A stretch of 64,000 bases of DNA, taken from positions 19,470 to 83,469 of the forward strand of contig DAORAL010000012.1 in assembly GCA_035344155.1 (NCBI GenBank), read 5' to 3'. Every line of letters starts with the position of its first letter. The first letter of the stretch is position 1. The position numbers were made by a program, and so were the translations under genes. This document shows, one piece after another, positions 8,088-64,000 of this stretch. The stretch is from Phycisphaerae bacterium. Lineage in GTDB: Bacteria > Planctomycetota > Phycisphaerae > UBA1845. The notes under the pieces were generated by a model, which had not been told where the DNA came from, made no database searches, and saw only the letters and a list, made by a program, of their open reading frames with translations.

Positions 8088-8564
8088 ATGATGACCTACG
8101 ATGACAAGAACTCATTTCGGCAGGCGACCGAGATCGTTGGACTGCTTTCGAGGCAGCTTTCGCTCTACGATCAGTTGACGTCACTCGCAGAGAAGCAGCG
8201 AAAGCTGGTGGCGGCAGAGGATACCCGCCCGCTGATGAAAGTATTGGCCCAGCGGCAACGCCTGACGATTGAGCTTGAGGCGCTCAATGCGCGGATGGCT
8301 CCTTTGCGCGACACCTGGCCAACCGTTCGGGACGGACTGGATGCGCAGGATCGCTCGATGGCGGATGATCTGATTTCCAAAGTCAACTCACGTTTGAAAA
8401 CCCTTCTGGATGGCGATGCGGCTGACGTGGAGTTGCTTCAACTACGCAAGCAGCGGGTGGGAACGGATCTCGGTACGGTTCGAAATCGCCGCAAGGCGGT
8501 GGCTGCGTATCAGATCACGGTCAATAACCCGACTCATTTTGATCGTCTGCACAACGAGGTTTGA
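8088..8564 (+). CDS. FlgN-like helical protein (putative flagellar export chaperone)
   Basis: 158-aa all-helical ORF with an AAGGAGG RBS. The pattern LLSRQLSLYDQLTSLAEKQRKLVAAEDTRPLMKVLAQRQRLTIELEALNARMAPLR resembles the FlgN family. Its stop overlaps the kinase start. The assignment rests on pattern and context only. Confidence 0.45.
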   Translation: MMTYDDKNSFRQATEIVGLLSRQLSLYDQLTSLAEKQRKLVAAEDTRPLMKVLAQRQRLTIELEALNARMAPLRDTWPTVRDGLDAQDRSMADDLISKVNSRLKTLLDGDAADVELLQLRKQRVGTDLGTVRNRRKAVAAYQITVNNPTHFDRLHNEV

Positions 8565-9451
8565 AACCAGTGACCACAACGATGCAGCACAATTCCAAAG
8601 AGTCGTCAACTTCGTTGGCTCCGAAGATCACCCATCGCGAACGCGAGTTGGGGGCGATTATCAACTCGTACAACGAAGTGACCGAACGCCTCAAGCAATC
8701 GCACGATCGACTGCGTGATGAGGTTGTGCGGCTTCACGATCAGCTTGACGAGAAGAACCGCGAGTTGGCGAGGCGCGAACGGTTGGCAGCCTTGGGAGAG
8801 ATGGCTGCCGGCGTCGCCCACGAGATTCGCAATCCGCTCGGTGGGATTCGGTTGTACGCGGACCTGCTGATCAAGGACCTTTGCGAGATGCCGAAGTCGC
8901 AGCAACTCGCGCGTCGCGTTTCAGATGGCGTCAGTGTTTTGGAAAGCATCGTTGGTGATGTGGTTGAATTTGCGGGCGAATCAATGCCGGACGTTGCACC
9001 GGTTCGCGCTGCGACACTTTTGGAAGAAGCGATCGGGTTGGCGGCTCCGGCAGTGTCTTCGCGTGGATGCGACCTGCGGGTTAAACCCATTGATCGGGAA
9101 CTTTACGTTCAGGCGGACACGAACCAAGTTCTCAGAGCGCTGTTGAATTTGCTGCTGAACGCGGTGGATGCAGCCGGCGCGAATGGATCGATTCGAATCT
9201 CGGTCAGGTTGAACGCGTCGGGCACGCACTGCGATTATCTGATTGCAGACAGCGGTCCGGGGATTTCGGCGGACCTGATGAATCGCATCTTCCATCCGTT
9301 CTTTACGACGAAGTCGTCCGGTACGGGATTGGGGTTGGCGATTGTGCATCGGATCGCGGACGCGCACGGAGGTTCGGTGCGTGCACGCAATCGCGACGGT
9401 GGCGGCGCAGAGTTCTGTCTGTCGCTGCCGGTTGGCAAGTCGCCGCGATAG
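8561..9451 (+). CDS. Cytoplasmic, sensor-less histidine kinase (NtrB/FlgS-like)
   Basis: H-box AAGVAHEIRNPLGGI, N-box LLNLLLNAVDA, G1 DSGPGI, F-box IFHPFFTTK and G2 GTGLGLAIV. No TM segment or PAS-type input is present, only a coiled-coil leader. The start is TTG 8561, GTG 8570 or ATG 8582. Confidence 0.85.
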   Translation: MKPVTTTMQHNSKESSTSLAPKITHRERELGAIINSYNEVTERLKQSHDRLRDEVVRLHDQLDEKNRELARRERLAALGEMAAGVAHEIRNPLGGIRLYADLLIKDLCEMPKSQQLARRVSDGVSVLESIVGDVVEFAGESMPDVAPVRAATLLEEAIGLAAPAVSSRGCDLRVKPIDRELYVQADTNQVLRALLNLLLNAVDAAGANGSIRISVRLNASGTHCDYLIADSGPGISADLMNRIFHPFFTTKSSGTGLGLAIVHRIADAHGGSVRARNRDGGGAEFCLSLPVGKSPR

Positions 9452-9494
9452 GGAAAAGCGAACACAAGAAAGCGATAGTCGGAGATTTGAAGGT

Positions 9495-10889
9495 ATGGCG
9501 AGTATTTGTGTTGTAGACGATAAGGAATTGCTCCGCGATTCACTCAGCGCGACGCTGGAACGCGAGGATCATCGGGTGACGACGTTTGGTTGCCCCGAAG
9601 ATGCGCTGCCGAGCATCACCGACGGTCAGTACGAACTTGTATTGACCGACCTGAAGATGCCGGGGATGGATGGCGTGAGCATGCTGCGCGAGATGCGGGC
9701 GGCTGGCTGCGAGACGCCGGTGATCGTGATGACCGCGTTCGGTTCGGTGGCGTCGGCGGTTGAAGCGATGAAACTTGGCGCGTCGGACTATGTGCAGAAA
9801 CCGTTCGATGCGGACATGATCGTGGTGCAGGTTGAACGGGCGATCAGTCAGGCGCAACTCGTCAAGGAAAACGAGGCCCTCCGCACGAGTGTGAGCGACA
9901 TGCAGGCGTCGCGCGACATGATCGGTGACAGCGACCCGATGATCGAAACCCGTATCCACATCGCCCAGGTGGCCAACAGCAATGGCACGGTGCTGATCTC
10001 CGGCGAATCCGGGACCGGTAAGGAACTGGTGGCCCGTGCGATTCACGCGTCGTCATCGCGTGCAGCAAAACCGATGCTGTGTCTCAACTGTGCGGCGCTC
10101 AGTGCCAACCTTCTGGAAAGCGAACTGTTCGGTCACGAGCGCGGGGCCTACACCGGCGCCGACCGCGCCCGCAAGGGGCGATTCGAGATGGCCGACGAAG
10201 GCACGCTGCTCCTCGATGAAATTTCCGAAATGGCCTTGCCGCTTCAGGCGAAATTGCTTCGCGTCCTGCAGGAAGGTGAATTCGAGCGAGTTGGCAGCAG
10301 TGCGACGCGCCGGGCCAACGTTCGCGTCATCGCGACGACCAACCGCGACCTGATGGATTGGGTGCGCAAGGGTGAGTTCCGCGAAGACCTGTTCTATCGC
10401 CTCAACGTTTTGCCCGTGACCCTGGTTCCGCTTCGTGAAAGGGTTGGCGATGTTGCCCAACTGGCGGCTCATTTTTTGAAGCAGATCGCCAAGCGCGACG
10501 GACGCGAACCGGCAAGCTTTGATCGAAGCGCTCTGGCACTTCTCAGTGAATACGATTGGCCGGGCAACGTGCGCGAACTGGAAAATGTCTGTGAACGGGC
10601 GGCGGCTGTCGCGACCGATCGAATCATCCCCGCCAGCGTGGTTGAAGGTTGGCTGGTGAACACGCGGCAGACGACGGATGCGTTTGAGGGTTTGCGTCCG
10701 GGTCGAATGCTTGAGGATATGGAACGCCGGTTGATCGAATATGCGTTGAAGAAGCACGGCGGGCACCGCGAGAAATCGGCAAAGACGCTGGGCATGGGCG
10801 TTCGGACGCTCGGCATGAAGCTGAAGCAGATGCGTGAAGAGAAAGAACGTCACGAGAATCGCAATGCGCTCGTTTCGAGCGCGATGTAG
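9495..10889 (+). CDS. Sigma-54-dependent response regulator (NtrC/FlgR/FleR type)
   Basis: Receiver domain (VVDDKELL...LVLTDLKMPGMDG...KPF). The AAA+ domain has Walker A GESGTGKELVARAIH, ESELFGHERGAYTGA (a GAFTGA variant) and Walker B GTLLLDEI. There is a C-terminal HTH. ATG 9495 with a GGAG RBS is preferred over the track start at 9342. Confidence 0.9.
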   Translation: MASICVVDDKELLRDSLSATLEREDHRVTTFGCPEDALPSITDGQYELVLTDLKMPGMDGVSMLREMRAAGCETPVIVMTAFGSVASAVEAMKLGASDYVQKPFDADMIVVQVERAISQAQLVKENEALRTSVSDMQASRDMIGDSDPMIETRIHIAQVANSNGTVLISGESGTGKELVARAIHASSSRAAKPMLCLNCAALSANLLESELFGHERGAYTGADRARKGRFEMADEGTLLLDEISEMALPLQAKLLRVLQEGEFERVGSSATRRANVRVIATTNRDLMDWVRKGEFREDLFYRLNVLPVTLVPLRERVGDVAQLAAHFLKQIAKRDGREPASFDRSALALLSEYDWPGNVRELENVCERAAAVATDRIIPASVVEGWLVNTRQTTDAFEGLRPGRMLEDMERRLIEYALKKHGGHREKSAKTLGMGVRTLGMKLKQMREEKERHENRNALVSSAM

Positions 10890-14227: not shown

Positions 14228-15268
14228 GTGGTGGCTGACAAAAACAAACAATCTGAATCCGAGTCAACTGAGATTCCGGGTATTAAGAAGGCGGCGATCT
14301 TGCTGACGGCGCTCAATGCCGACGTGTCTTCGCGGATCTTGAAATTCCTCGACCCGGATGTCATCGAAGACATCACGCGTGAAATCGCCCAGCTCGACAT
14401 TGTCGATCCGGTGATGCGCGGCCGAGTCATCGACGAATTCTATCACCTTGCATTGGCGCGGCAGTACGTGGACGCGGGTGGATTTGGGTATGCCAAGACG
14501 CTCCTTGAGAAAGCGCTGCGTCCCGATGAGGCCAAGCGCATCATCAGCGTCATCGAGCACCAGGTTTATCAGCAGCCATTCGCCTTCCTTCAAAAGGCAG
14601 AGAGCGAAAGTCTGTTTACGTTTATTCAGGAAGAACATCCCCAGACCATCGCTTTGGTGCTCGCCCACATGCCGCCAAGCAAGTCGGCGGAAATTCTGAT
14701 GGGACTGCCAGCGGCCAAGCAGTTGGAGGTCGTGTCGCGCGTCGCCAACATGGAAACGACGAATCCGGAAGTCATCAAGGAAGTGGAAATCGGGCTGGAA
14801 AAGCGACTGGCTGGTATCACGTCGCAGCGATTGATGAAAGTCGGTGGTGTGGAGTCGGTGGCGGAGATTCTGAACCTTGCGGATCGTGCGACGGAGAAGG
14901 CGATCATGGAAACGCTGGAGTCGGAAGATCCGGATCTTGTCGAACAGATCAGGCGACTGATGTTCATCTTCGAAGACGTCCTGCTTGTGGACGACAAGGG
15001 TATTCAGTCGGTGCTCAAGGAAGTGGACAACGACGAATTGGCGTTGGCATTGAAGACGGCGAGCGACGAACTGAAGGAGAAGGTTTTTGGCAACATGTCC
15101 GAGCGTGCGGCGACGTTGATTCGCGAAGACATGGATTACATGGGACCGGTGCGTTTGAAGGATGTCGAAAACGCCCAGCAGAAGATCGTGGATATCGTGC
15201 GCCGTCTGGAAGATGCCGGCGAAATCATCATCTCGGGTCGCGGTGGCGAAAGGGACTTGATTGTCTAA
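14228..15268 (+). CDS. fliG: Flagellar motor switch protein FliG
   Basis: GIKKAAILLTALNADVSSRILKFLDPDVIEDITREIAQL and C-terminal MGPVRLKDVENAQQKIVDIVRRLEDAGEIII. GTG 14228 after an AGAGG RBS is preferred; the track starts at TTG 14210. Confidence 0.92.
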   Translation: MVADKNKQSESESTEIPGIKKAAILLTALNADVSSRILKFLDPDVIEDITREIAQLDIVDPVMRGRVIDEFYHLALARQYVDAGGFGYAKTLLEKALRPDEAKRIISVIEHQVYQQPFAFLQKAESESLFTFIQEEHPQTIALVLAHMPPSKSAEILMGLPAAKQLEVVSRVANMETTNPEVIKEVEIGLEKRLAGITSQRLMKVGGVESVAEILNLADRATEKAIMETLESEDPDLVEQIRRLMFIFEDVLLVDDKGIQSVLKEVDNDELALALKTASDELKEKVFGNMSERAATLIREDMDYMGPVRLKDVENAQQKIVDIVRRLEDAGEIIISGRGGERDLIV

Positions 15269-17915: not shown

Positions 17916-18635
17916 ATGAAGCGGTTTGGAAAATTCTATCAGTTCATCGCTCTCGTCGCGTTGATTCACTTCGCCGCGATCCTGGTGGGCGTGGGTTGGT
18001 TGATCCAATCCGGAAAGCTCAACAAGGAAAACGTCCTTGCGATCGCGGGCGTGTTGGGGTTTGGCGACGACGCAGGGACGGACGACGGAGCCGACACTGA
18101 CGAATCCACGGCGACCGAAGCGGCTTCCCCACAAAAAGGCAAGTCGTCGGCGCCGGTGACGAATTCGGTTCAGGAGGAGTTGGCCCGTCGAAGTTTGCAG
18201 CGTGCGGTGACACAAGCCGAACATCGCCGGGAGTTGGCGCAGCGGGCGATGCTGGATGTCCGACGTCGGCGCGAAGAGTTGGAACGATTGGCCGAGCAAC
18301 AGACGACCAAGGTTGAAAAACAGACCAAAGAAAAGGCGAAGGAAGGTTTCAAGAAGGATCTTGAAATTCTCTCTTCGCTGAAACCAAAAATCGCCCTCGA
18401 CAGTTTGTTGGCCCGTTCGGTGGACGATGCTGCACAGATGATGCTCCTGATGGAAACGCGGCAGGCCAAGAAGATCATGGAAGCCGCCCGAAAAGATGAC
18501 GGCAAATGGACGCAGATGATTGCCATTGAAAACAAGATGCGGGAAGCGACCACGCTTGACGGTGAAGTTGAAGAGGTCGTCGAGTCGGAACCTGAGTCGG
18601 CAAGTGTCAGCGAACCGTTGGCGCAAAACAACTAG
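17916..18635 (+). CDS. YlxF/MotE-like membrane-anchored coiled-coil protein (flagellar, function unknown)
   Basis: N-terminal TM (FYQFIALVALIHFAAILVGVGWLI) and a charged coiled coil. The C-terminal LKPKIALDSLLARSVDDAAQMMLLMETRQAKKIMEAA resembles MgtE-N-type helices. It occupies the slot of ylxF in Firmicute/spirochaete operons. Confidence 0.4.
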   Translation: MKRFGKFYQFIALVALIHFAAILVGVGWLIQSGKLNKENVLAIAGVLGFGDDAGTDDGADTDESTATEAASPQKGKSSAPVTNSVQEELARRSLQRAVTQAEHRRELAQRAMLDVRRRREELERLAEQQTTKVEKQTKEKAKEGFKKDLEILSSLKPKIALDSLLARSVDDAAQMMLLMETRQAKKIMEAARKDDGKWTQMIAIENKMREATTLDGEVEEVVESEPESASVSEPLAQNN

Positions 18636-24338: not shown

Positions 24339-24869
24339 ATGGCCGACCAGTCCGACAACACTGAATTATCAGTGGCGCCAGCGAGTGGCGGGAAAAGCAA
24401 GCTCAAGGTCATGTTGCTCATTTTTGGGCTGCTGGGTCTTGAAGGTGGCGGTATCTTTTTCGCGACCAAGATGATGTACAACAAGCCCGAGGCGACCATG
24501 GCCAAAGAGGTCTCCGACGAGGATAAGACGATCCAGTCCCTCAAGGATCACGTCGAAATTGCGATACCGGAACTGAACGCCTACAACAAGCGGGATGGGC
24601 GACTTTTCCTGTACAACGTGCAGGTCACGATCCGTGTTCAATCTGATAAAAAAGAGCAGGTTGAAGAGATCATCAGCATGCGGGAATCGACCATAAAGGA
24701 CCGTTTCAATACTGTTATCCGCAGTGCGGACTCCAAATACCTCAACGAACCCGAGCTGAAGACCATCCGCCGGCAGCTTCAGCACGAGCTCGAGAATGTT
24801 ATGGGGGACGATCAATTGATTGAAGAATTGCTGATTCCCAAATTCTTTCAGTCGCCAGCAAACGTTTAA
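24339..24869 (+). CDS. fliL: Flagellar basal body-associated protein FliL
   Basis: Single N-terminal TM (VMLLIFGLLGLEGGGIFFA) followed by a FliL-like periplasmic region (LFLYNVQVTIRVQSDKKEQVEEIISMRESTIKDRFNTVIRS...IEELLIPKFFQ). It follows motB by 3 nt. Confidence 0.7.
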   Translation: MADQSDNTELSVAPASGGKSKLKVMLLIFGLLGLEGGGIFFATKMMYNKPEATMAKEVSDEDKTIQSLKDHVEIAIPELNAYNKRDGRLFLYNVQVTIRVQSDKKEQVEEIISMRESTIKDRFNTVIRSADSKYLNEPELKTIRRQLQHELENVMGDDQLIEELLIPKFFQSPANV

Positions 24870-24977
24870 TTACGGTTGCCCCACCTGCAGTACCGATAAT
24901 ACACGTGCGCCAGACGGAGCGATTGCGAATGCCGCAATTGCCCAGCACGTTATTGTCTTTATACGAGCCATTCACCA

Positions 24978-25673
24978 ATGGATCAGAACGAAATCGATGC
25001 GCTGATGGGTGACGACTCGGGCGACGATTCTCCGAACGAAAACGATTCGGGTGAATTGTCGCAAGCCGATATCGATGCCGCGATGGGCGGAGCCTCCAAT
25101 CAACCAGTTGCATCCGATGATTCGTCGGACGCAGGCGACGACGTCGGTTTCAGCCAGGCCGATATCGATGCGCTGATGGGTGGTAAACCTTCAACAAGCG
25201 CCCCCAAAGAAAACGTACCGGCTGCCGCAGAGGCGCCCGCGCTCGACTCGGAAGGGCGACCGCTGGACGAAATGGGCGCAGCAATGGCGGCTGCGATCGC
25301 TGAAGAAAAAGCAGCAGCAGAAGCCGCAGCGGCTGCCAATCCAAAACCCGCCGATCTTCCCCTGGAAGAAATCGAACTGCCATCATTCGATCAGGAAGAA
25401 GTCTATACCGAATACACGCAGCCGCTCAGCTTGCTGCATGACGTTCAACTCCACGTCAAAATTGAACTCGGTCGAACCCGCATGTTTGTGGAAGACGTGT
25501 TGCGTCTCAGTGAAGGCAGCGTTGTCGAATTGGACAGACTTGCAGGTGACCCTGTGGACGTCTTTGTCAACGACCGATTGATCGCCCGGGGGGAAGTCCT
25601 GGTGCTCAACGACAATTTCTGCATTCGCGTCAGCGAGATTGTTTCAAATTCAGAAGACCGTGCAGCCGGCTAG
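24978..25673 (+). CDS. fliN: Flagellar motor switch protein FliN with an N-terminal triple EIDAL-type motif region
   Basis: C-terminal SpoA/FliN domain [71 protein letters not shown]. The N-terminus carries [20 protein letters not shown] and [12 protein letters not shown], separated by acidic linkers. Confidence 0.88.
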
Positions 25674-31977: not shown

Positions 31978-33064
31978 AACAATCAAAGCGAACTCCATGC
32001 CGGAAGCGCTGGCATTGGTGAAAAAGGAACTCGGTAGCGACGCCGTCATCCTGCACACGCGAACGCACCCAAGGCGCAGGCTGCCCGGGGGAGCGTCGAA
32101 GCACGTCGTTGAAGTGACGGCGGCTACCTCGTTGGACGCGGTACCGGAGGCGATGCGCCGGGCGATGTCGCAGGACGGTCAGCCCAGACGCGACTCGGTC
32201 GTTCGTTCGGGAAAGGTGATTCCGTCGAGAGCCTCTGCGGAGAATGCCCCAACGAACACAGCGCCGGATGCGCTCTTTGATGTCTACCGCCGTCTGATCG
32301 AGTCGGACGTTGCCCACGAAATTGCGAGCCAGCTGATTGCGCGCCTGGAAGAAGACCTGTCGCCAACCGACCGGGCGGTTGAAGCAAATGTTAAGACCGC
32401 GCTATCCAAACGGCTATTGAACATGCTCCCTCCGGTCTGTGAAATTGACCTTGCACCGAAGTCCGGACCGGTGGTGGTGGCGCTCGTTGGGCCTACAGGT
32501 GTGGGGAAAACGACGACGGTCGCGAAACTGGCGGCAGACTTTTCGCTGCGTAAGGATCGGTCGGTGGGTTGCATTGCGCTCGACGCCCGCAAGATCGGGG
32601 CGACCGCGCAAATCGAGGCGTATGCAAATATCATTGATGTGCCATTGCAGGTTATTGAGAATACGGCAGAATTACAGGCCGCGATCGCAACCTGGTTTGA
32701 TCTCGATGTGATTTTGATAGACACGCCGGGTTTAAGTCCGCAGGATACAGCCGGTCTGATCGCGCTGACGAATCAGTTGGAGTCCATCGAAGTGGATGAG
32801 ACGCACCTGGTGTTGCCGGCGACGATTGGCGGACGGGCGATGCGCGACGCGGTCGAACGTTTTGCGACGGTGGGGGCGGATCGTTTGCTTCTGACCAAAC
32901 AAGACGAGGCGATCGGGATGGCTGTGATTCTCAACGCGGTCCATCAGACGCAGATGAAGATATCTTACATGACGACGGGCGACGACGTGCCGGATGGAAT
33001 CAGTCTGAGCGCACGCGAGTCGTTGGCCGAATCGATTTCAGCGCAGGTCGCGCTGATGGAGTGA
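31964..33064 (+). CDS. flhF: Flagellar SRP-type GTPase FlhF
   Basis: N-terminus MKNLRTIKANSMPEALALVKKELGSDAVILHT, G1 LVGPTGVGKTTTVAKLA and DTPG. It overlaps flhA by 14 nt. Confidence 0.88.
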   Translation: MKNLRTIKANSMPEALALVKKELGSDAVILHTRTHPRRRLPGGASKHVVEVTAATSLDAVPEAMRRAMSQDGQPRRDSVVRSGKVIPSRASAENAPTNTAPDALFDVYRRLIESDVAHEIASQLIARLEEDLSPTDRAVEANVKTALSKRLLNMLPPVCEIDLAPKSGPVVVALVGPTGVGKTTTVAKLAADFSLRKDRSVGCIALDARKIGATAQIEAYANIIDVPLQVIENTAELQAAIATWFDLDVILIDTPGLSPQDTAGLIALTNQLESIEVDETHLVLPATIGGRAMRDAVERFATVGADRLLLTKQDEAIGMAVILNAVHQTQMKISYMTTGDDVPDGISLSARESLAESISAQVALME

Positions 33065-33948
33065 ACGCAGTGACCCGTTTGCGAAATCCATTTTCGCTGA
33101 AACCCGATGCCGGTCGGAAACGACACGACGCGGCAGCACCGCAGCGCACTCACTCGCCGAACAAACCAATCACCATTGCGATCACCAGTGGCAAGGGCGG
33201 CGTCGGTAAGAGCAACATCGCTGTCAACCTTGCGACGAGCATTCAGCAGCGCGGCCAACAAGTCACGCTCGTCGATCTCGACATGGGGCTCGCCAATGCC
33301 GACGTTCTGCTCAACGCATCACCCGCGCACAACCTCGGACACGTCATTCGTGGATCAAAAAGTGTTCAAGAAGTCGCCCACCGGGTGGGGCAGGGACTGA
33401 CGTTGATCGCGGGCGTCCCAAGTGGCGCCGAAGGCATTCGCAACACGACGCAGATTGACCAGCTTGTTAGCGAGATCAAATCGGCATCGAGTGAATTTAT
33501 CATTTTTGATTGTGCGGCCGGCATTGGTTTCAATGTTACCCATTTTGCGCGGGCTGCCGATGTTGTCCTGGTGGTAACGACCCCAGAACCGACCGCTTTG
33601 GTCGATGCGTACGCTACCGTTAAAACATTATGTAAAGAGGGTTATGACGGTTCTGTTCGGCTTTTGGTCAATATGGTTGAGAGTCGACAGGAAGCTCGCA
33701 AAGCATTTAGTCGTGTGCGAGATGCTTGTGAAAAATTCATAAACTTTGATATTGCGGAAGCCGGCTACGTTCTGCATGATACTCATGTTGAACTTGCGGT
33801 TCGTCAACGCGAGCCGTTTGCTCAGCGGTACCCAAAATGCTCCGCCAGCCTTTGCATCTCTGTCATTGCGACACGATTGGTGGGAGCGCACGCTGGAACC
33901 AACGGACAAAACAAAGGTATTTTTCAGCGCGTCGCGGGAATGTTTTGA
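33061..33948 (+). CDS. flhG: MinD-type ATPase FlhG (YlxH/FleN)
   Basis: Deviant Walker A ITSGKGGVGKSNIAVNLA and a C-terminal amphipathic tail GIFQRVAGMF. It overlaps flhF by 4 nt, and the exact start is uncertain. Confidence 0.85.
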   Translation: MNAVTRLRNPFSLKPDAGRKRHDAAAPQRTHSPNKPITIAITSGKGGVGKSNIAVNLATSIQQRGQQVTLVDLDMGLANADVLLNASPAHNLGHVIRGSKSVQEVAHRVGQGLTLIAGVPSGAEGIRNTTQIDQLVSEIKSASSEFIIFDCAAGIGFNVTHFARAADVVLVVTTPEPTALVDAYATVKTLCKEGYDGSVRLLVNMVESRQEARKAFSRVRDACEKFINFDIAEAGYVLHDTHVELAVRQREPFAQRYPKCSASLCISVIATRLVGAHAGTNGQNKGIFQRVAGMF

Positions 33949-34245: not shown

Positions 34246-34551
34246 ATGGTCGCTCGTTATACAGGCGCGGTGCTAAGCCTCTTTGCATTTGGGTTGGCAT
34301 CCATTGCTGGATTGATTGCCGGGAATCCGCCGGAGGTCGTGTTGTCGCGCGCGTTGTGGGCGCTGGCGGTATTCTGTGTCATTGGGTTGGCAGTGGGAGC
34401 AGCCGCTCAAATGGTGTTGGGCGAGTACGCGATCGAACGCGCTGCGGCTGTCATGCCGAATGAGGATGAAATCGCTCCAGCTATCGATCATGACGAGATT
34501 GTTGATGCCTCGGTTCTTGAACCAGAAGGCAAGGTCAAACCAGGGGCGTAA
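34246..34551 (+). CDS. Small two-TM membrane protein with acidic tail, unknown function
   Basis: 101 aa with a GGAGG RBS 10 nt upstream of the ATG. Two hydrophobic helices (AVLSLFAFGLASIAGLIAG and ALWALAVFCVIGLAVGAAAQMVL) are followed by an acidic C-terminus. It lies between flhG and fliA. Confidence 0.5.
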   Translation: MVARYTGAVLSLFAFGLASIAGLIAGNPPEVVLSRALWALAVFCVIGLAVGAAAQMVLGEYAIERAAAVMPNEDEIAPAIDHDEIVDASVLEPEGKVKPGA

Positions 34552-63240: not shown

Positions 63241-64000
63241 ATGACCGACGCGGAACCAAAAAAAGACAACACCATCACCGGGACGTTTGAACCGTCTGGT
63301 GAGCGGGGGGGCGGTTTCATTCGTCTCGCCAAATCAAATTACCGCATGATGAGCACCGATCCGTTTGTGCCTGAGAAGATGCGGGCGGAGCTGCAACTGC
63401 GCGGCGGCGAAACGATCATCGGTGAAGCCGCCGTCTCCAAGAACAACAACCGCCCGCGCCAGAACAAAGGTCGCAATCAACGCAACGGACGCGGTCGAAA
63501 CCCTCGCGATCGGGGCGGCAGTCAGGACGCCCAGCCGGCATCCAAACTCCAACTCAAGAGCGTTGCGACGATCAACGGCAAAGTCTTTGAAGACTACGCC
63601 AGCGTTTCACCGTTCGAAGACCTCACCGCGATCAACCCCCAGGAGCAGTTGAAGTTCTCGACACCTGGCGGACCGTCGTCGATGCGTGTCGTTGACTTGA
63701 TGGCTCCAATCGGTCTCGGTCAGCGCGGTTTGATTGTCGCGCCGCCGCGAACCGGCAAGACGGTCTTGCTTCAGCAGATGGCCCACGGTATCGCGACCAA
63801 TCACCCCGACATTTACATGATGGTGCTGCTGATCGACGAACGTCCGGAAGAAGTCACCGAAATGCGTCGTACGGTCAATGGCGAAGTCATCGCGAGCAGC
63901 AACGACGAAAACGTCGCGAACCACATTCGCCTCGCCCGGTTGATGACGGCCAAGGCCAAGCGCCACGTCGAGATGGGAGAAAATGTTGTGATCCTCCTCG
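63241..64000 (+). CDS. rho: Transcription termination factor Rho, 5' part (runs off the right edge)
   Basis: CSD-like RNA-binding region GGGFIRLAKSNYRMMSTDPFVPEKMRAELQLRGGETIIGE, Walker A GLIVAPPRTGKTVLLQQMAHGIA and MVLLIDERPEEVTEM. It is not in the track because it is open-ended. An in-frame TGA at 63232-63234 fixes ATG 63241 as the earliest start. Confidence 0.92.
   Translation, partial: MTDAEPKKDNTITGTFEPSGERGGGFIRLAKSNYRMMSTDPFVPEKMRAELQLRGGETIIGEAAVSKNNNRPRQNKGRNQRNGRGRNPRDRGGSQDAQPASKLQLKSVATINGKVFEDYASVSPFEDLTAINPQEQLKFSTPGGPSSMRVVDLMAPIGLGQRGLIVAPPRTGKTVLLQQMAHGIATNHPDIYMMVLLIDERPEEVTEMRRTVNGEVIASSNDENVANHIRLARLMTAKAKRHVEMGENVVILL

Follow-up and report, generated by a model that had tools for sequence, protein, structure and literature searches.

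Tandem EIDAL-type peptides on FliN and a fliM gene missing from its usual slot in the flagellar clusters of Planctomycetota

In flagellar clusters of the Bacillus, Borrelia and Thermotoga type, fliM lies between fliL and fliN. The cluster analyzed here follows that order minus this one gene, and its FliN carries three copies of a peptide of the EIDAL type, which raises two questions: where FliM is encoded, and what the peptides on FliN bind. The 64-kb stretch of DNA that was analyzed (hereafter, the window) comes from a MAG of a marine bacterium of the Phycisphaerae (Planctomycetota), and the proteins at its edges are also encoded in assembly GCA_002338715.1. Pfam scans and reading of the open reading frames (ORFs) revealed one long plus-strand flagellar cluster, with the following genes and features.

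Cluster start, plus strand, in order: sigma-54 activator gene, flgB, flgC, fliE, fliF, fliG, fliH, fliI, fliJ
Cluster middle, plus strand, in order: ylxF-like gene (assigned by position), fliK, flgD, flgE, flbD, motA, motB
Then, plus strand: fliL, fliN, fliO, fliP, fliQ, fliR
Cluster end, plus strand, in order: flhB, flhA, flhF, flhG, a small ORF with a membrane-protein-like product, fliA
14633..14647, plus strand: EHPQT motif in FliG (motif match)
24339..24869, plus strand: fliL, 176 aa, directly upstream of fliN (PF03748 FliL, E = 2.6e-5)
24870..24977, plus strand: fliL-fliN spacer, 108 nt, no ORF inside
24978..25673, plus strand: fliN, 231 aa; a disordered acidic tail bearing three EIDAL-type peptides precedes a conserved helix and then the FliN-type SpoA domain
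33061..33948, plus strand: flhG (MinD/ParA-type ATPase), in the same cluster as fliN (Pfam ParA, CbiA, MipZ)

Just upstream of flgB lie an isolated FlgN/FliT-like chaperone gene (8088-8564) and the gene of a response-regulator-type sigma-54 activator (9342-10889); the activator gene near flgB suggests sigma-54 control of the big flagellar cluster. The small ORF between flhG and fliA (34246-34551, plus strand, 101 aa) has two hydrophobic stretches resembling membrane helices. Unannotated ORFs of 71-101 aa occupy the same position in four relatives (L001, L003, L103 and L104), with no family match on record. One of these, L104 (JGI contig Ga0187892_10000008), carries genes for a histidine kinase and a sigma-54 response regulator, then fliE, flhG, the small ORF and fliA, a fragmented arrangement without the fliF...flhF block. 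A FliI-like ATPase gene truncated at the right edge of the window (63241-64000; L008:12279-14080) appears from its sequence to encode Rho, and on L008 the gene of a 140-aa stand-alone CheY-like receiver comes after it.

An earlier note on this DNA had placed the end of fliL at 24869 and the start of fliN at 24978, with no fliM in the 108-nt gap, and our ORF calls agree. It had also stated that the window encodes no FliM middle domain, and every search of the window bore this out: Pfam on the larger ORFs detected no such domain in the 64 kb, and no FliM was found there with a local HMM built from seven FliMs or by phmmer and tblastn with two planctomycete FliMs described below; phmmer with E. 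coli FliM likewise gave nothing. The flanks, ~10 kb beyond the right edge and ~1.5 kb beyond the left, contained no FliM. A 239-aa ORF between fliJ and fliK (17916-18635) was considered as a cryptic FliM and rejected; its N-terminus resembles a membrane helix, the remainder is charged, and it occupies the ylxF position.

A scan with one genome per GTDB species yielded 80 Planctomycetota loci, spanning Phycisphaerae, Tepidisphaerales, Pirellulales, Planctomycetaceae and an Isosphaera MAG. In every locus with a readable upstream region, fliL (or motB plus a divergent gene) adjoined fliN, with no fliM between them. The immediate upstream neighbour of fliN was fliL in nearly all 80 loci, and the fliL-fliN gaps in the other Planctomycetota were typically 10-200 nt. 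With the same HMM and FliM queries, no FliM middle domain was encoded within about 10 kb of fliN in the 80 species, and two relatives had no fliM in the 10 kb that follow fliA; fliA was used as an anchor because of the order fliA-fliM-fliY of Helicobacter. The comparator locus L110 reads fliL-fliM-fliN-cheY-fliO, the same order with fliM in its slot. Across the loci surveyed, the empty fliM slot is a phylum-wide and ancient arrangement. Literature searches returned no description of a phylum-wide removal of fliM from this slot and no account of a planctomycete FliM.

The empty searches of the window, of the neighbourhood of fliN in 80 species and of the DNA downstream of fliA would suit a lineage without any FliM. 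In such a lineage FliN would link to FliG, perhaps via its helix at aa 98-120, and would take CheY-P by its peptides, giving a two-protein switch. The strong conservation of this extra helix (described below) speaks for such a switch, and there is a precedent in Aquifex aeolicus, reported to lack FliM (PMC7355467). Against it, though weakly, FliG of the window retains EHPQT, the counterpart of the known FliM-binding site EHPQR. Moreover, fliM is listed among the genes of two Phycisphaerae genomes (PMC9119077, PMC13514998), and canonical FliM is encoded in two Planctomycetota MAGs, as follows.

A profile search run exhaustively over 1.84 billion cluster representatives gave 10,941 FliM-like clusters, and the best 150 of these include two planctomycete FliMs, P0502 and P0499. 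The exact sequence of P0502 is MHC4606794.1, 'MAG: flagellar motor switch protein FliM [Planctomycetota bacterium]', and the 90% cluster of P0499/P0523 includes MBP5232248.1, 'FliM [Planctomycetes bacterium]'. PF02154 scored 213 and 225 bits on the two proteins, and SpoA is also present. P0502 and P0499 each carry one canonical N-terminal peptide, MADQDKILSQHEVDALLSAI and MANGKKTEVLSQGEIDDLLTTI (N-termini ILSQHEVDALL and VLSQGEIDDLL), and they have in common the signature YDFKRPERV..DQ.R....LHEVLAR. Both fliM loci are solitary: their 5-6-kb contigs hold no other core flagellar genes, the sole flagellar neighbour is a FliY-like gene, and housekeeping genes surround both. This FliY-like gene follows fliM on L106 and encodes a 321-aa protein with SpoA and no EIDAL peptide; its N-terminal region looks CheC-like by eye, and Pfam finds SpoA only. 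Directly upstream of fliM in both loci (L105:2483-2788; L106:1079-1456) is a gene for a protein of 98-130 aa with a hydrophobic N-terminal stretch, one of which gives a weak DivIC match and bears the JGI name FtsL, the other having no Pfam match.

Some further observations concern these and other FliM-like proteins. The synteny of fliM with a possible cell-division-type gene is conserved in L105 and L106. P0502 (L105:2804-4153) is 449 aa long, and its two SpoA (FliMN_C) stretches give the impression of a FliM joined to a FliN-like domain. P0457, P0461, P0376, P0385, P0508 and others are FliM-like proteins of about 605-650 aa that start at the YDF core and have no EIDAL peptide; as candidates for planctomycete FliM, those of ~610-650 aa were rejected, their one named member coming from a Spirochaetes MAG. 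Another 90% cluster of the ~605-650-aa proteins holds a fragment named FliG, which suggests that they may be FliM-FliG-like fusions. A FliM profile run against a set of 5.8 billion proteins gave a best 120 made up almost entirely of Treponema and Spirochaetes, the one other named match being E. coli; ranked protein searches of this kind list proteins from the clade of the query before all others. On metagenome contigs, a GC-rich DNA pattern written for the core of FliM gave one random match; the pattern demanded the F in HExFAR, and planctomycete FliM has HEVLAR. An AlphaFold model of a FliM intended for fold searches was set aside at pLDDT 43.

The two MAGs indicate that in Planctomycetota FliM exists, has left the big cluster and has kept its own docking peptide. 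Because the slot is empty phylum-wide and solitary FliM genes occur in two Planctomycetota MAGs, the evidence favours a FliM of the window's organism that is encoded elsewhere and was not lost. The earlier note had offered two options, a motor without FliM or a FliM elsewhere; the second gained from the two FliMs of the phylum with peptides of their own, and the first lost ground. We regard a lineage without any FliM as very unlikely, and it keeps its small probability because of the precedent reported for A. aeolicus and because the analysis covered about 100 kb of the species' genome.

The features of FliN itself are as follows.

24987..25010, plus strand: EIDAL-type peptide 1, aa 4-11, NEIDALMG (predicted helix aa 3-10; mean pLDDT 82 over aa 1-10)
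25056..25091, plus strand: EIDAL-type peptide 2, aa 27-38 (predicted helix aa 29-37; fits the family consensus)
25149..25184, plus strand: EIDAL-type peptide 3, aa 58-69 (predicted helix aa 60-68)
25242..25337, plus strand: second conserved element plus long helix, aa 89-120 (alignment A1 and AlphaFold2)
25431..25643, plus strand: FliN-type SpoA domain, aa 152-222 (PF01052, 84 bits; TIGR02480, 107.6 bits)

The protein is 100% identical to the database entry 'MAG TPA: flagellar motor switch protein FliN [Phycisphaerae bacterium]'. Pfam detected FliMN_C (PF01052) alone, well above its cut-off of 23.8 bits, and the NCBIfam fliN model TIGR02480 also exceeded its cut-off (84.05 bits), in agreement with the earlier description of a 231-aa FliN with a normal C-terminal SpoA domain. 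The closest solved structures were those of T. maritima FliN (1o6a and 1yab), aligned to aa 148-226 only, and the SpoA domain matched solved FliN chains with E-values of 1e-19 to 1e-23. The gene lies immediately upstream of fliO-fliP-fliQ-fliR, the operon position that characterizes fliN. The best NCBIfam match was the FliY model NF005995, aligned to aa 57-226 of FliN, which reached 120 bits, below its cut-off of 218, and covered only profile positions 213-374 of 376. PF02154 gave no match on FliN; the FliM model TIGR01397 reached 28 bits against 219.6, through SpoA only, and the match of the local FliM HMM was confined to HMM positions 246-325. Judged by all of its defining features that could be tested, the product of 24978-25673 is FliN. 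By the same profiles it is not FliM; nor is it FliY, since a test for the CheC-like domain showed this domain to be missing.

The N-terminal ~150 residues have no Pfam match; for aa 1-141 no domain appeared even at E = 10. Matches of PF28396 on some FliN homologues were considered as an N-terminal repeat family and rejected, this family being SepQ_C, a relative of SpoA. The first 150 residues contain 36 D+E against 5 K+R, and the first ~88 form a strongly acidic tail that was predicted with low confidence in the AlphaFold2 model, which was built on 61 homologues. In this model, the parts of the linkers at aa 21-23, 49-55 and 71-84 had a pLDDT below 50, and short helices coincided with all three peptides. 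The tail is followed by a long, confident helix at aa 98-120 (23 residues, pLDDT about 81-83) and then the SpoA fold. The second conserved element (aa 89-110) runs into this helix, and D90, G93, P95, D97 and M103 are invariant in alignment A1. The element was seen only in FliNs with arrays of the SQADIDA type, and the two occur together in 23 of 79 species.

The three motifs lie at aa 4-11, 27-38 and 58-69 with the residues that the earlier note had given, and the DNA similarity that it had remarked on for copies 2 and 3 extends to all three. The motif-coding stretches at 24984, 25062 and 25155 (spacing 78 and 93 nt) are 28-nt direct repeats of a single family, with 71-89% identity to the reference copy. 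Tandem Repeats Finder reported nothing for these repeats, and the linkers are not repeated. The linkers are unrelated at the DNA level, which argues that the repeats are not a recent tandem duplication, and the 71-89% identity between copies suggests that they are old and maintained. Of the three, peptide 3 is the one for which every one of the 17 A1 sequences has an aligned counterpart, and Q60, I63, D64 and A65 are invariant there. The peptides show the docking-motif consensus hydrophobic-S-Q-x-[DE]-I-D-x-L-L, in a disordered context and with helical propensity. The pattern [DE]IDA[AL][LM] is expected 0.025 times in a six-frame translation of the whole window, whereas FliN contains three matches and an antisense frame one more; in shuffled versions of the 75-residue FliN N-terminus, the probability of even one copy was 3e-4. 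A lone 10-residue unit gave i-Evalues of 54 and 74 against the FliM HMM. A single unit is too short to score with an HMM, so that homology of the units rests on the identity of the consensus and on context. Both their sequence and the predicted helices are compatible with a putative role of the three peptides in docking CheY.

The survey of relatives that the earlier note had proposed revealed repeated motifs widely: in 116 of the 120 closest database FliN homologues the peptide, with the consensus LSQADIDA[AL][LM], occurs between one and six times, with four homologues having none, 11 having one, 46 two, 38 three, 11 four, seven five and three six. The 314 units of the 120 homologues read [LFIMV]-S-Q(97%)-A-[D86/E13]-I(94%)-D(100%)-A(97%)-[A/L]-[L/M]-x-G, and the linkers between them differ freely in length and sequence. 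Conserved units in free linkers suggest selection on the peptide and not on the tail as a whole. Among the FliNs of 79 species, at least one EIDAL-like peptide was present in 52, at least two in 27 and at least three in 12. With no peptide in 24 species and at least three in only 12, the array appears dispensable within Planctomycetota. Three N-terminal types were distinguished: SQADIDA-type arrays with the second conserved element, in 23 species including that of the window; one or two 'IDQASIDELLKQASFEDP' units, in Tepidisphaerales; and no EIDAL-type peptide. The FliN of Pirellulales has two xQxEIExLL units.

A copy number that runs from 0 to 6, a motif missing from many planctomycete FliNs and a tail predicted to be disordered would also be expected if the repeats were a neutral expansion of a low-complexity acidic tail without a specific partner. 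This account is hard to reconcile with Q, I, D and A being 94-100% conserved over 314 units while the linkers vary freely, with the agreement of these positions with the known FliM/FliY motif, and with copies that at 71-89% DNA identity look old and maintained. We consider it highly improbable.

How far does this FliN depart from known proteins? FliY of B. subtilis and T. maritima is encoded at the corresponding place in the operon, between fliL(-fliM) and fliO/fliZ, and likewise joins an N-terminal EIDAL-type peptide to a C-terminal FliN-type SpoA domain. Unlike FliY, the FliN of the window has no CheC-like phosphatase domain in the middle, and it has three peptides instead of one plus the extra conserved helix at aa 98-120. 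Functionally, as read from its sequence, it resembles a FliY stripped of the phosphatase domain and with the docking peptide multiplied. The N-terminal peptide of FliM (E. coli MGDSILSQAEIDALL; planctomycete P0499 and P0502) has the same consensus as the FliN units, and in both a predicted short helix has a flexible linker behind it; in FliN, in contrast, there are three copies with acidic linkers of 19-25 residues, and no FliM middle domain follows. With ordinary FliN (E. coli, Salmonella, T. maritima) it has the SpoA domain in common, whereas the 50-residue N-terminus of E. coli FliN lacks an EIDAL peptide and the window FliN has ~150 Pfam-less N-terminal residues. The flagellar gene set of A. 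aeolicus, like the window, has no fliM next to fliN; Aquifex, however, is described as mostly smooth-swimming (PMC7355467), while Planctomycetota have FliM elsewhere and chemotaxis genes have been reported for Phycisphaerae (PMC9119077, PMC13514998).

The accessible text of Henderson et al. 2020 (PMC6946799) describes full or degenerate EIDAL motifs on some FliN/FliY proteins and calls them sporadic; it covers 12 species and no planctomycetes, and arrays are not mentioned there. Our literature searches found no account of tandem arrays or of variable copy number of the EIDAL peptide on FliN. The arrangement, which the earlier note had called unusual, is so in a wider comparison; within Planctomycetota it is the norm.

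EIDAL-type peptides were also seen in two other settings. Some FliMs of the Spirochaete type (L095:4899-6296, P0435 and P0367) have two tandem EIDAL-type peptides ahead of the FliM body, although in L095 the first copy may precede the true start codon; the docking peptide is therefore duplicated outside the FliN family as well. Two viral IMG/VR contigs (L101:4923-5375, L102:4914-5357) encode ~150-aa proteins with a FliM-like peptide, 'TEVLSQDEIDQLLTAIG' / 'TEVLSQNEIDQLLGAIS', 30-40 residues from the ORF start, no FliM body and a coiled-coil-like tail. They could be phage-encoded decoys for CheY or FlhG.

The peptide family has known partners. [quoted passage not shown] We favour a conventional FliG-FliM-FliN ring with FliM encoded elsewhere and with FliN tails that add docking sites for CheY-P, to which we give a probability of roughly 0.6. 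In the window's organism, an ordinary ring of this kind would hold about three FliN per FliM and hence roughly nine extra tethered docking peptides around each FliM, because FliM-FliN3 protomers form the lower rim. Gathered in a cloud at the ring's base, the tethered peptides would catch CheY-P, and perhaps other regulators of the CheY type, and would raise the capture rate of CheY-P and its local concentration near the surfaces of FliM and FliN at which switching takes place. Dimorphic bacteria have CheY-like regulators, such as the Cle proteins of Caulobacter, that could be further clients of the peptides.

The peptides might instead mainly dock FlhG and not CheY-P, the tails recruiting FlhG at C-ring assembly and setting the number and place of flagella in the swarmer. 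The genes flhF and flhG lie 6-8 kb downstream of fliN in the same cluster, and the C-terminus of FlhG (...GIFQRVAGMF) is a hydrophobic/basic stretch. Schuhmacher et al. (2015) reportedly found the FlhG site to be the EIDAL peptide itself. FlhG binds the FliM N-terminus in monotrichous bacteria and FliY in B. subtilis (PMC12826062). Recruitment of FlhG is the main rival because the peptide family contacts FlhG and flhF/flhG belong to the cluster. On the other side, flhF/flhG also occur in planctomycete loci with an EIDAL-less FliN, which argues that FlhG function does not require the array. As the main role we judge FlhG docking rather unlikely; it is compatible with CheY docking, and both roles may coexist.

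The conventional ring with added CheY-P sites has a stronger version, which we put forward as a tentative possibility. In this branch of Planctomycetota, FliN and not FliM would then provide the majority of the sites at which the chemotaxis signal docks, at three to six per FliN and 9-18 FliN peptides per FliM peptide, and the ring would act as a multivalent trap for CheY-P and FlhG. If true, the trap would be of high capacity, possibly also for several CheY-like regulators of the swarmer cell cycle, and switching or speed control would have a sensitivity unlike that of the E. coli model.

As matters stand from these searches, the headline of a missing FliM largely dissolves, and the multivalent FliN is real and widespread, with putative docking of CheY-P or FlhG. 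For annotation, the absence of fliM beside fliN in Planctomycetota should not be read as the absence of FliM, and motility calls that need fliG, fliM and fliN to be co-located will miss planctomycete FliM. Models of motor ultrasensitivity rest on the E. coli picture, in which each FliM offers a single docking peptide for CheY-P. In a large and environmentally abundant phylum, FliN, which is threefold more abundant than FliM, bears the peptide in 1-6 copies, and FliM is encoded separately. If these peptides bind CheY-P, the number and geometry of the signal-capture sites would differ from those of the model systems by about tenfold, and copy number would be an evolvable parameter.
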